DNA of 64,000 nucleotides from an uncultured Gammaproteobacteria bacterium (GTDB taxonomy: Bacteria > Pseudomonadota > Gammaproteobacteria > CAWCPV01), in contig CAWCPV010000003.1 of assembly GCA_963797555.1 (NCBI GenBank), forward strand, positions 800,001-864,000, written 5' to 3'. The notes below the pieces were generated by a model that ran no database searches, was not told where the DNA came from, and saw only the letters and a program-made list of their open reading frames with translations. Made by a program: the position numbers and the translations under genes. The stretch's first letter is position 1; each line of letters opens with the position of its first letter. Positions 4,092-7,000 of the stretch are shown here, piece by piece.

Positions 4092-7000
4092 CTTCGCGCC
4101 GGCGAGGGCGCTGTCCTCCCACGCCGAGCCGTCGGCCGGGGCATCCTCGTAGTCGCCGTGCCAGTGGTCTTGGGTCCACTCCCAAACGTTGCCCAGCGTG
4201 TCGTACAACCCCCAGGGATTGGGTTGCTTGCGCCCCACCGGACGGGTCCCCGCCCGCTGATGCGAGTATTGCTTTTCGGGCCACCCTGAGCTGTCGTGGC
4301 CGTCATCCAGGTCGAAGTCCACCCCGCTGTTGCCCCCATACCAGGCGATGGGGTCCAGCGCCGGGGCGTTGTTCTCCCCCAGGATCGCCAGGTCCCCGCT
4401 GTAGAGGGTCGTCTCGGTGCCGGCGCGGCAGGCGTATTCCCACTGCGCCTCGCTGGGCAGCACCAGACCAAGTCCAGGTATCCGTTCGCCGATCTGCCCG
4501 AGAAAGCCCTGCACGTCGTCCCAGCTCACCTGCTCCACCGGGCGCTCGGGGCTCTTGAAGCGACTCGGGTTGTCCCCCATCACCGCCTCCCACAGCGCCT
4601 GCGTGCACGGGGTTTCGAATAGCCAGTAGCCGTGCGAAATGATGACCGTGTGTTGCGGACCTTCGTCGCCCCAGCGGCCCGGCTCGCTCTCGGGCGAGCC
4701 CATCCGGAACCGCCCCGGCGGGATCCAGCGCAAGCGCTGGGTGACGGGCTCGCCTCGAGCCGGATCGGGCGCGATCTCGGTCCACAGGCCGTAGCGATCG
4801 CGGCCGATGGCGCTGGCCCAGGCGGGCTTGGTGGCACGCCGAAAGGTCAAGCGCTCGCGGTCGGTGCGGACGCGGAACGCAGGGGCCTGGGGGATGGGAG
4901 CGGCTGCCTCGGGGGCGCCTGTGTCGAGGCGCAGCAGCACGGCGCGCTCGCCGCCTTCGCGCGCTCCGCGCGGGAATGCATCGGGATGAGTTCCTGCGGC
5001 GACTGTCGGTCCCAGAGTACCGCGCGCAGCCGTCCCGGATGCGCCTCCCAGGCCCGCATTGCGGCGCGCCGTTCGCTCGGCGGCAACCCTGTGCTGGGGG
5101 ACGGGCCCTGGCTCACCCGAGCGGGACCACAGACGTTGTATCGGTTTAAGCATGCGCTCGATCAACGGTCCTCGCTCCTCCGCTCCGCTCGGCTGCACCC
5201 GCGCTGGGCGGCGCTCCGCCTGCCGCCCAGACGCCGGCGCAGCCGGCTCCGCTCCCTGCCTGCCTGGCCCAGTATCTTGAACTCGGGCGCAGCGGAAGCC
5301 GAGGGAGTCGTGGCGGTAGTCGGGGGGGATCTGGGAGCGGGAAGCAGCGCGCACGTAACGCGCGTTGCTGCTCCAGGACCCGCCGCGGATCACGCGCACC
5401 GAGCCGGTGCCGCGGTCCTCCCATACCGAGCCGTCGGCTGGGGCGCCCTCGTAGCTGCCGTTCCAGTGGTCTCGGGTCCACTCCCAGACGTTGCCGTGCA
5501 TCTCGTACAGGCCCCAGGGATTGGGCGGCAGGCTCGCCACGGGAACGGTCTCTCCCCGATACAGGCCCTTCTTGCCGCCCGCATAGGGATCGTTGCCGTC
5601 ATAGTTGACCTGCTCCGGGGTGATGTCTTCGCCGAAGCTGAAAGGGGTCGTGGTTCCGGCGCGGCAGGCGTATTCCCACTGCGCCTCGCTGGGCAGCGTC
5701 AGGTCGAGTCCGGGCAGCCGCTCGTTGAGCCGCCTGATGAAGTGCTGGCAGTCGTTCCAACTGACGTTCTCGACCGGGCGCTCCGCGCCTCCGAAGCGGC
5801 TCCGGTGCTCGCCCATCACCGCCTGCCACAGCGCCTGGGTGCAGGCGGTGTCGAACAGCCAGAAGCCGCGGTCGATCGTGACCTGGTGCTGAGGCCCTTC
5901 GTCGCTGTAGCGTTCCAACTCGCCCTGCAGCGACCCCATGAGGAAGGTCCCCGGCGCGATCCAGCGCATGCGCTGGGTAACCTTCTGACCGCGCTCGTCC
6001 TCGACGCCGAACGTCACCCAGTGGCCGTACGCGTCCGTGCCCCAGTCATCAGCCCAGGGCGGCGGCTGGCCTGATTTCCAGAAGGCGTTGCGGTCGCCGA
6101 TGGTGGAGAGAAGCTCAACGACCTGAACGAGCCGATTCCCGGTTCGCAGGGTGCCCAGGTAGCTACCCGGCTCCGGTGCGTCCGCCGACGCGCCCTCCCG
6201 CACCGGAGACAGGACCAGCTCGCCGCCCCGTTGCCGCAGCTCACAGCGGCGCTCCGGATGTCCCGGCTCACGCACCAGCGCCGGGTCCATCGCAACGGGC
6301 GGACGGTAGCCCGGAACGTGGCGGTGGAGACTCCAATCGACGCGCAGCAGCCGGGTACCGACCACCTCGTCGGTCCAGAGGCTGTCCGCTCGCCCGCACA
6401 TCCGGCCAATCCAGGCACGGGCGGAGCTATCGCATGGGATGTCCGCATTGGATTCGAACCGCTCGCACAAGTAAGCGAAGAAACGCCGGGCGTCTTCCAA
6501 GTCTTCCGCGTCGGGCAGGGCCTCGCGCGAAACCGGCGCGAGGTTGAGGATTTCCTCGAACCAGATCTCCTCGGGCAGGTGGCCGCGCCAGGTGCGCAGC
6601 AGGGCGAGCACCATACGCTGGCGCGCAATGGGCTCGGCGGCGAAGGCGGCGCGCAGCTCGCGGGCACGCTTGGGGTCCAGGGTGGCCGCGTCGCTGTGGG
6701 TGCTGGCCACGGCCGGGTGCTGCCAGACGTCGGACTCGGTGCCCGCATCGGCCTCCAGCGCACCGAGGCTCAGGCGCACCGCGCGCAGCAGGCCGGGCTC
6801 GATGCGCACGGCCGGGGAGACCAGGCGCAGCAGGCGCTCCGCCCGTTTGCGCAAGGCGCCGCTATCGGTCACGGCGCGGCCGCGCGGACGCTCCCAGGGG
6901 ATGAGTTGCCAATGGCGGCGCAAGACCGCGGGGCACCGTGCCACGGGGCAGGGCACCAGGGCCACGGGACGAGCGCCTGCCTGGGCGACGCGCCGGCCGA

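Follow-up and report, generated by a model that had tools for sequence, protein, structure and literature searches.

An internal variable region and its translated, probable homing module in a tandem C-type-lectin target gene of a probably orphaned diversity-generating retroelement array

The variable regions (VRs) of diversity-generating retroelements (DGRs) are typically C-terminal in their target genes, as described in the available text of the preprint by Roux et al. (10.1101/2020.04.01.020958). In the 64,000-nt stretch of contig CAWCPV010000003.1 (positions 800,001 to 864,000; assembly GCA_963797555.1, an uncultured Gammaproteobacteria bacterium) analysed here and denoted the window, a VR-like region (VR1) instead lies inside a gene for a 1268-aa protein that carries a second such region (VR2) at its end. 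An initial annotation of the DNA had placed VR1 about 440 codons before the stop, and 439 codons indeed follow its core, compared with four in the case of VR2. This raises the question of how a VR can persist in the middle of a protein, and what becomes there of the DNA element that follows a VR. The window is probably the orphaned target array of a DGR class with HRDC accessory gene and associated MoxR ATPase, in which the homing module behind the first VR is translated as a linker between two domains. As the window contains neither a template repeat (TR) nor a reverse transcriptase (RT), the designation "VR" is applied to its regions on the strength of their pattern.

Two variable regions in one reading frame

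The minus-strand open reading frame (ORF) 3966..7916 is open throughout, across VR1. Its first ~48 codons show a non-coding composition in terms of frame-specific GC content (GC content at third codon positions, GC3, 0.40–0.58), and because of this and of the identity to the 1268-aa record P0002 the likely start of the target gene is the GTG at 7770-7772, which overlaps the stop codon of the upstream MoxR gene. The Pfam family PF03781 (FGE-sulfatase) is matched twice, once in each half of the long gene (E 8.5e-93), and a third FGE-sulfatase domain is found in the short downstream gene (2502-3278). In the AlphaFold2 (AF2) model the tandem part has a mean predicted local distance difference test (pLDDT) score of 81 and consists of two confident domains, with values mostly between 87 and 98 in domain 1, while the segment joining the two (model residues 299-387, approximately window positions 5222-4956) stays below 50. 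The gene thus displays the characteristics of a DGR target, namely the C-type-lectin (CLec)/FGE fold, a VR at the domain end and variation at codon positions 1 and 2.

The 98-nt VR cores were located by motif search and extend from the RGGSW to the GFRCA codons. The three domain ends of the window, including the one of the short downstream gene (VR3), align with each other and differ chiefly in positions 1 and 2 of NNC codons, a hallmark of the variable regions of DGRs. Among the three cores 24 columns vary, 22 of them being codon positions 1 or 2, and 21 of the 24 fall on the 22 columns that carry adenine in at least half of the template repeats of 17 relatives. VR1 and VR2 differ from each other in 17 columns, 16 of which are template-A columns. 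Conversely, the two are identical at 64 of the 65 columns where the templates never have adenine, compared with 232 of 360 in the 360 nt upstream, which argues for copying of both from one template. This appears to have happened shortly before the deletion of the mutator genes described below, unless both regions are still copied from a template elsewhere.

In order to describe the family, one genome scan was employed, which returned 80 loci (best identity 70%, the source genome not being among them) from Competibacteraceae, Chromatiaceae, Methylococcaceae, Azospirillum, Magnetococcales, Planctomycetota, Desulfobulbaceae, Verrucomicrobiota and others. At 13 loci with VR1, VR2, TR and VR3, mismatches to the template, which is 23% A in composition, were counted inside the 98-nt core. 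For VR1, 162 mismatches are at template adenines and 27 at other bases (12 loci, without L021 because of its length; L031 alone contributes 17 of the 27), for VR2 the numbers are 151 and 10 (12 loci, L056 being dropped for length), and for VR3 they are 162 and 24 (13 loci). In the relatives, two regions of one protein are each rewritten from one template repeat at adenines. To this extent the two diversified binding sites proposed by the initial annotation are borne out, but ongoing combinatorial diversification is not claimable for the window, because its RT and template repeat are deleted, and diversification at the present day is unproven there.

The module behind the variable regions and its role

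Downstream of VR1, a 17-mer (GCCAGGCAGGCAGGGAG, minus strand) is found that recurs directly after the stop codon behind VR2, as had been noted initially; it has exactly these two exact matches in the window (Table 1). Allowing up to two mismatches adds no further match, with 0.05 expected, and none of 100 shuffled sequences gave two. The 17-mer is part of ~100 nt of 70% homology between the sequence following VR1 and that past the VR2 stop, so that the pair reflects common descent rather than chance; beyond these ~100 nt the homology of the linker to the intergenic region between VR2 and the short downstream gene (copy 3) ends. The claim that a post-VR cis element is read through as a protein linker therefore holds in the sense that the post-VR1 sequence is homologous to a non-coding terminal module and is itself translated. 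Where VR2 and copy 3 carry the box GTGAGC or GTGAGT with an in-frame TGA, the post-VR1 sequence has TGGGCC. It is accompanied by three GCGGAGC heptamers, and a corresponding heptamer triplet follows VR2, with spacings of 31–33 nt in both. The 9-bp hairpin of the initial annotation (CTGGGCGGC/GCCGCCCAG) is present as well, as the inner core of an interrupted hairpin of 24 bp. A 121-nt stretch with this hairpin has a folding energy of -36.7 kcal/mol (z = -2.2), which is equalled by 4 of 200 shuffles. Taken over the window, VR-specific recognition sequence and inverted repeat are strong after VR1, weaker after VR2 and degenerate after VR3, which is not followed by a heptamer.

VR copies were found by motif search in 41 related loci as well as in the window. 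In the relatives the match between TR and VR ends at about GCCCGAG(C/T)TC, and past this point the VR side shows a GTGAG(C/T) box, GCGGAGC heptamers and an inverted repeat with the heptamer in its loop. Within 140 nt downstream (background 0.028 per 140 nt), at least one heptamer accompanies 25 of the 31 internal VRs, 30 of the 49 terminal ones and 15 of the 18 that have a short C-terminal tail, and none of the 16 template repeats; two further template repeats, misclassified as VRs in this count, are both without heptamer. In loci linked to an RT, at least one heptamer follows 41 of 45 VR copies (one of the 45 being actually the L040 template), compared with 14 of 29 in loci without RT. The stem sequences vary by locus (CTGGGCGGC, GGGCCGGC, TTGGCCGGC, CGGGACGGG, besides stems of 24–29 bp); the script that scored them under-scores bulged stems and served to list stems only. 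For 17 sequences with one loop geometry, 96% of the cells pair, compared with 36–46% when the partner strand is slid, and in six of the nine pairs both partners are exchanged. The covariation score is 0.49 versus 0.15, a value reached by none of 500 shuffles. A covariance model built from these 17 sequences yields 21 matches at E below 1e-3 in 1.32 Mb, both strands included. The training sequences account for 17 of these, and the four new ones come from L001 (two), L017 and L012 (one each). All 21 lie within ~100 nt after a VR and on the same strand. The match at the VR1 hairpin (5201-5233) scores 51.1 bits, while the post-VR2 hairpin gives none at E of 1 or better. In the Methylococcaceae relatives L007, L014, L022 and L023, REP-like (repetitive extragenic palindromic) hairpins (GGCCGGAATAAGCC...) occur after VR1, either replacing the heptamer hairpin or beside it.

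By analogy with the initiation of mutagenic homing (IMH) element and hairpin of phage BPP-1, the module would act as a DNA target-recognition element. Each VR would be followed by a homing signal composed of the GTGAGCC box, GCGGAGC heptamers and a GC-rich hairpin or cruciform, in which any pairing sequence may serve as the stem and the heptamer forms the loop. At a terminal VR the box supplies the TGA stop codon and the rest of the module is non-coding. The module of the first cassette would have been retained because homing into VR1 continues to require the DNA signal; its TGA is shifted out of frame or mutated and the module is translated as a linker, for which AF2 confidence is low.

The pairing could also be employed in RNA, since covariation is unable to separate the two nucleic acids and a GC-rich hairpin past a stop codon resembles a stabiliser of mRNA 3' ends. 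That the hairpin serves mRNA stability, ribosome pausing or termination instead of being a recognition signal in DNA is nevertheless unlikely. No T-run follows it, the terminator scan finds no intrinsic terminator at either hairpin of the window, and a terminator placed within an ORF that has another 439 codons to go would be damaging. Furthermore, the module is absent after all template repeats and depleted in loci without RT, both of which link it to homing.

The position of the box and the frames of the heptamers bear on a second explanation, according to which a linker peptide is kept for the function of the protein, as a flexible spacer or a peptidase cleavage site, and the DNA hairpin is incidental. 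At terminal VRs the GTGAG(C/T) box is located at +12 and its TGA is the in-frame stop codon. Of the 31 internal VRs, 14 keep the box at +10, +11, +13 or +14 with the TGA out of frame, while variants are found at others, namely GCGAGC in six and TGGGCC in the window. All three reading frames occur among the linker heptamers: frame 0 accounts for 31 of them, translated as AER or AEP, frame 1 for 19 and frame 2 for 3. In accordance with a protein function, the motif GAEPA..GRQAERRP recurs in many relatives, and neighbouring peptidase and TIR effectors are described for this DGR class in the main text of Dore et al. 2024 (PMC10907252). However, the recurrence of the peptide follows from the heptamers being read mostly in frame 0, which is shared by 31 of the 53, whereas the remaining 22 are in other frames. 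The same heptamers and hairpins also follow terminal VRs past the stop codon, the stems covary as the peptide changes, and the module is rarer in loci without RT. Heptamers past terminal stops and in all three frames of the linkers speak for a constraint on the DNA, and retention for the sake of the peptide is quite improbable.

The initial annotation had assumed that two target cassettes were fused by loss of a stop codon. A fusion in this genome, by recent stop-codon loss after VR1, would be in line with TGGGCC occupying the place of the in-frame TGA found in the boxes of VR2 and copy 3 and with the non-coding-like GC3 of the linker. The relatives leave very little room for it. Of 8000 candidates scored in a protein search, 3128 were relatives at E of 0.001 or better, and 111 of the 119 listed besides the window's own are 1125–1875 aa long, so the comparison of homologs with one and two CLec domains suggested at the outset does not support a local event: the two-domain form is a conserved family. 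With the tandem part 79 relatives align at 53–73% identity, and 11 full-length relatives align through domain 1, linker and domain 2. On the DNA level, a first VR is followed by more than 300 in-frame codons in 29 loci as well as in the window; these 30 sources contain 31 internal VRs, each with more than 300 codons following (one in the window, one each in 28 loci, and two in L053), and L020, L021, L024, L049, L056 and L057 are without read-through. The same read-through in loci of several phyla and in more than 100 proteins stands against a recent fusion, and so does the linker part adjoining domain 2, which is conserved as protein in the alignment of relatives, the odd composition being limited to the translated module and to a 225-nt stretch specific to the window. 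What remains of the original proposal is the vestige of a terminal stop (TGGGCC, and the out-of-frame boxes in relatives), but the loss of the stop did not take place at this locus.

The tandem architecture is old and spans Gamma- and Alphaproteobacteria, Planctomycetota, Desulfobulbaceae and one cyanobacterial metagenome-assembled genome (MAG). A complete cassette is provided by L002, where a TIR protein, a MoxR-like ATPase, the tandem target, an HRDC gene, the RT, the template repeat and a short target follow each other in this order. In L053, a Thiotrichales MAG, one ORF (1121-5809) contains three FGE domains with VR-like ends; no GCGGAGC heptamer follows any of these ends and no RT is found within 11 kb.

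The 225-nt stretch is open and in frame, with pLDDT below 50. No homologue was found in the window or the 80 loci, where blastn and tblastx gave noise. Another GTGAGCC, not in the reading frame, is located in it at 5110-5116, as is a heptamer within a short palindrome (4963-4969), and the stretch may be a scrap of another post-VR module.

Finally, it is extremely improbable that the heptamer-flanked inverted repeats are selfish REP- or MITE-like (miniature inverted-repeat transposable element) repeats sitting in DGR loci by chance, for although MITE-like stem-loop repeats occur in DGR loci of Thiohalocapsa PB-PSB1 (main text of PMC10907252) and REP-like GCCGGAATAAGCC hairpins after some VRs in L007, L014, L022 and L023, the position and strand of the module are fixed relative to the VR, the 21 strong covariance-model matches are all located after VRs with none elsewhere in the 1.32 Mb, and across the remaining window the heptamer occurs about as often as expected by chance (37 found, 36 expected).

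Lost mutator genes and the neighbourhood of the array

A search of the 64 kb by blastn with the three VR ends and with an A-rich pattern returned the three copies only and thus no template repeat. Likewise, no ORF of 200 aa or more in the window matches RVT_1 (Pfam), and tblastn with the L002 RT against the 64 kb gives a best E of 0.6. What is left of the accessory gene is 65% identical over 63 aa to the 162-aa HRDC protein of L002, which itself matches Pfam HRDC; with 63 of 162 codons remaining, the HRDC domain itself is absent. This remnant directly joins a sequence that is 71–84% identical to the region ~68–190 nt past the TR end in L002, L006, L007, L009 and L014. From this junction a deletion of ~1.6 kb can be deduced, which appears to have removed the C-terminal part of the accessory protein with its HRDC domain, the RT, the template repeat and ~65 nt beyond. 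Of a complete DGR cassette the window consequently lacks the RT, the template repeat and an intact accessory gene.

In consequence VR1 and VR2 are frozen, save for the case that another DGR of this genome acts on them; according to the available text of Kaur et al. 2020 (PMC7159879), a template repeat may sit elsewhere in the genome. The template repeats of the relatives show 8–36 non-A mismatches to the VRs of the window, and none of them is able to replace the lost one. In a comparison bearing on such service in trans, the L007 template repeat against the VRs of the RT-less L022 from the same MAG, the A/non-A mismatches are 15/4, 10/8 and 13/8, with too many at non-A positions for a call. 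Loss or absence of the RT is not confined to the window: an RT lies within 4 kb past VR2 in 19 of the 41 assessable sources and is missing in 22 of them, including the window, even though at least 3 kb are available; 40 further sources, too short or without a VR pair, are outside this count.

Table 1. Features of the array and its flanks, all on the minus strand (-); VRs are designated by their pattern
Feature	Position	Strand	Remarks
Long DGR target gene, 1268 aa (likely start)	3966..7772	-	N-terminal extension, FGE/CLec domain 1 with VR1, linker, FGE/CLec domain 2 with VR2
FGE-sulfatase/C-type-lectin-fold domain 1	5283..5972	-	best Pfam stretch, residues 649-878 of the 1316-aa ORF
FGE/CLec domain 2 with beta-strand N-terminal extension	3969..4739 (approximate)	-	second Pfam stretch, AF2 model
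VR1 core, 98 nt, ORF-internal	5287..5384	-	motif search
VR2 core, 98 nt	3982..4079	-	motif search
TGGGCC, apparent vestige of the GTGAGC box	5266..5271	-	alignment; box/frame table
17-mer GCCAGGCAGGCAGGGAG	5252..5268	-	VR-side specific, IMH-like; past the TR/VR match end in relatives
Three GCGGAGC heptamers at VR1	5246-5252, 5213-5219, 5182-5188	-	ahead of, within the loop of and behind the VR1 hairpin
Interrupted 24-bp hairpin/cruciform	5187..5247	-	DNA fold; loop holds GCGGAGC; encodes ...SGRQAERRP...
Inner 9-bp stem CTGGGCGGC/GCCGCCCAG	5222-5230 / 5204-5212	-	hairpin 5204-5230, 9-nt loop between the arms
Linker stretch of 225 nt (75 codons)	4941..5165	-	in none of 14 aligned relatives (alignment columns 1042-1116)
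Non-coding module past VR2	3877..3968	-	box with TGA stop 3966-3968, 17-mer 3949-3965, heptamers, weaker hairpin
Post-VR2 heptamers	3940-3946, 3908-3914, 3877-3883	-	
Weaker post-VR2 hairpin	3889-3934	-	fold z = -0.2
HRDC accessory gene remnant	3408..3716	-	codons 1-63 (3528-3716) homologous; remaining ORF is junction sequence
Distal part of post-TR spacer	3380..3515	-	right edge of the apparent deletion
Short CLec-only target, copy 3	2502..3411	-	Pfam E 2e-43; VR3 core 2518-2615; degenerate post-VR module
MoxR-like AAA+ ATPase	7769..8749	-	directly upstream of the target; Pfam AAA_5 E 2.3e-09, sub-threshold bpMoxR match
Conserved upstream partner gene, two frames	8746..10349	-	pieces 9699-10349 and 8746-10128

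The MoxR gene is kept beside the target in 71 of the 80 related loci as judged by tblastn (72 sources counting the window). Next to it, the N-terminal extension of the target (6117-7772, minus strand; residues 1-552) gives a confident AF2 model with a pLDDT of 87. Against the PDB this model has no match at E of 0.001 or better; weak matches are obtained to NorD of the NorQD complex, in which NorQ is the MoxR component, and to the vWA domains of ANTXR1/2 (probability 0.99–1.0, E 0.005–0.04, target-normalised TM 0.3–0.44), while Pfam does not find a vWA domain in this partner protein of MoxR. Going by the model, the MoxR ATPase may have in this extension a divergent, vWA-like partner. A vWA domain in the protein partnering MoxR characterises the VMAP/MoxR-vWA ternary system (Kaur et al. 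2020, PMC7159879), along with a VMAP protein that has a peptidase, cyclase or adaptor N-terminus. Both pieces of the conserved gene further upstream match one continuous gene in L006 and L002, where it has a C-terminal TIR domain. In the window this gene is without a Pfam match, and PADLOC relates it only weakly to LmuA (E 1.4e-4), with no match for the target, the short target or the accessory remnant.

Copy 3 contains a 1-nt frame break near 3290-3300, with its N-terminal motif in another frame. A gene of the KDO8P/DAHP-synthase family (59171-60303, plus strand) is split into two overlapping frames in the same way as the short target and the upstream partner gene, and because a housekeeping gene is affected likewise, some of the frame breaks may be assembly indels rather than decay. 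In L030, L031, L040 and L041 the template repeat and the following short target share an open frame, an ORF of ~400 codons running from TR through VR3, which may be due to chance in GC-rich DNA.

Downstream of the array, a 40-nt direct repeat (73% identity; 1076-1115 and 2410-2449) flanks a block with toxin–antitoxin genes of PhD/PIN type, and its second copy begins at the end of the degenerate post-VR3 module, as if an inserted cassette had cut the module. A cluster of four tRNA genes (12974-13364, minus strand; Lys-CTT, His-GTG, Arg-TCT and Pro-TGG) lies 3 kb from the array, and these four are the only Rfam matches in the 64 kb. At a distance of 11 kb, a 1086-aa protein of the conflict-system type combines a CHAT protease, a STAND/NACHT-like NTPase and TPR repeats (18726-21986, minus strand). 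Debris of mobile elements is found at 25995-27543 and 38978-40111, comprising a fragment of an IS66-family transposase, a fragment matching Druantia DruA and an ISL3-family transposase.

Comparison with described systems

In the main text of Dore et al. 2024 (PMC10907252), DGRs of clade 5A are described as having a MoxR-like ATPase upstream, a target whose long N-terminal extension is free of known domains, and a further, short target that consists of CLec only. The same gene layout is present in the window, its short target carrying the frame break, and the MoxR gene, the long extended target and the short CLec-only target are shared with the clade 5A loci of Thiohalocapsa PB-PSB1 (DGR 8) and Thiorhodococcus drewsii, the latter being identical with relative L015 (52% identity). 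In contrast to these published loci, the window is devoid of RT, template repeat and most of the accessory gene. By its gene content the locus appears to belong to this published MoxR-associated class. Tandem CLec targets with several VRs are not new either, since the same text reports for PB-PSB1 DGR 4 and DGR 5 targets with a vWA domain and three tandem CLec domains, hence several VRs per protein, and unequal diversification of the VRs of one PB-PSB1 target in natural populations. Like the protein of the window, the targets of DGR 4 and of DGR 5 unite several VR-bearing CLec domains in one polypeptide; they differ in that their RT is of clade 5B, the vWA domain is recognisable and the CLec domains number three, as compared with two in the window protein and three in L053. 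A hairpin, a linker or an IMH is not mentioned in the text of that article, supplements aside.

HRDC accessory genes are present in 14 of 372 DGRs according to the available text of Wu et al. 2018 (PMC5758913), which also reports internal VRs in Ig-type lineages and in six scattered DGRs. The internal VRs of this study and of Roux et al. have in common with the window that the VR is off the C-terminus of the target. They belong, however, to phage tail-fibre-like Ig1/Ig2 targets in which Ig-like domains follow, and not to tandem CLec sensors; the fate of the cis element at internal VRs is not discussed in the available text of either. A statement that a post-VR element is translated as a linker was not met in the literature searched, supplements aside. 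The modest increment here consists of the defined module, its frame-shifted survival inside ORFs and its depletion where the RT is gone.

The closest functional model is provided by BPP-1, where, in the part of Guo et al. 2011 available (PMC3240598), a hairpin following the VR is needed for homing, with a free stem sequence and a sequence-specific loop, and where IMH and hairpin are sufficient to target a foreign gene. The present class resembles it in a VR-specific sequence missing from the template repeat and a subsequent GC-rich inverted repeat with free stem and conserved loop. In BPP-1 the stem has 8 bp, the loop is a 4-nt GRNA, the hairpin is 4 bp past the VR and the accessory protein is Avd, whereas here the stems comprise 8–29 bp, GCGGAGC is found in the loop and on both flanks, the module starts ~30–45 nt past the VR core and the accessory protein is of HRDC type.

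Several observations weigh against the interpretation as a translated homing module. The role of box, heptamer and hairpin rests on analogy for this DGR class, and the analogy is imperfect: the loop is a heptamer, which could close to a GGA triloop, and not the 4-nt GRNA of phage DGRs, and stems reach 24–29 bp here compared with 7–10 bp there (PMC3240598, available text). The exact heptamer is missing after 6 of the 31 internal and 19 of the 49 terminal VRs. The 17 sequences of the pair count were found by a stem search and chosen for their shared loop geometry, which favours pairing. Within the window a convincing hairpin is present only at VR1; the one at VR2 (z = -0.2) is no better than shuffles and that of VR3 is gone (fold z = +1.3). 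The 225-nt stretch stays unexplained, with a non-coding-like GC3 of 0.64–0.74 compared with 0.82–0.96 in the domains and a rough chance of ~0.1, by base-composition arithmetic, that 75 random GC-rich codons would stay open in frame. Lastly, with no RT and no template repeat in the window, VR1 and VR2 may not vary today. On balance, an orphaned target array whose internal homing module is translated as a linker is still the probable explanation.

A more general proposal can be advanced only tentatively, at slightly under an even chance: box, flanking heptamers and a covarying cruciform of free sequence might constitute the complete, portable recognition module of HRDC-class DGRs, and its tolerance of translation as a flexible peptide, whatever the frame, would allow CLec cassettes to be joined in series into proteins with two or three binding sites, each rewritable on its own. 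In that case the module would be a template-independent signature for DGR targets, including remote and orphaned ones, and would offer a design rule by which a diversifiable site can be built into the interior of a protein. A motif of box, heptamers and covarying stem could find targets without a template repeat and guide homing studies. Putative immune systems of multicellular bacteria include sensors in which more than one site is rewritable, and a recognition signal carried inside the reading frame, as this family would exemplify, is a precondition for them.

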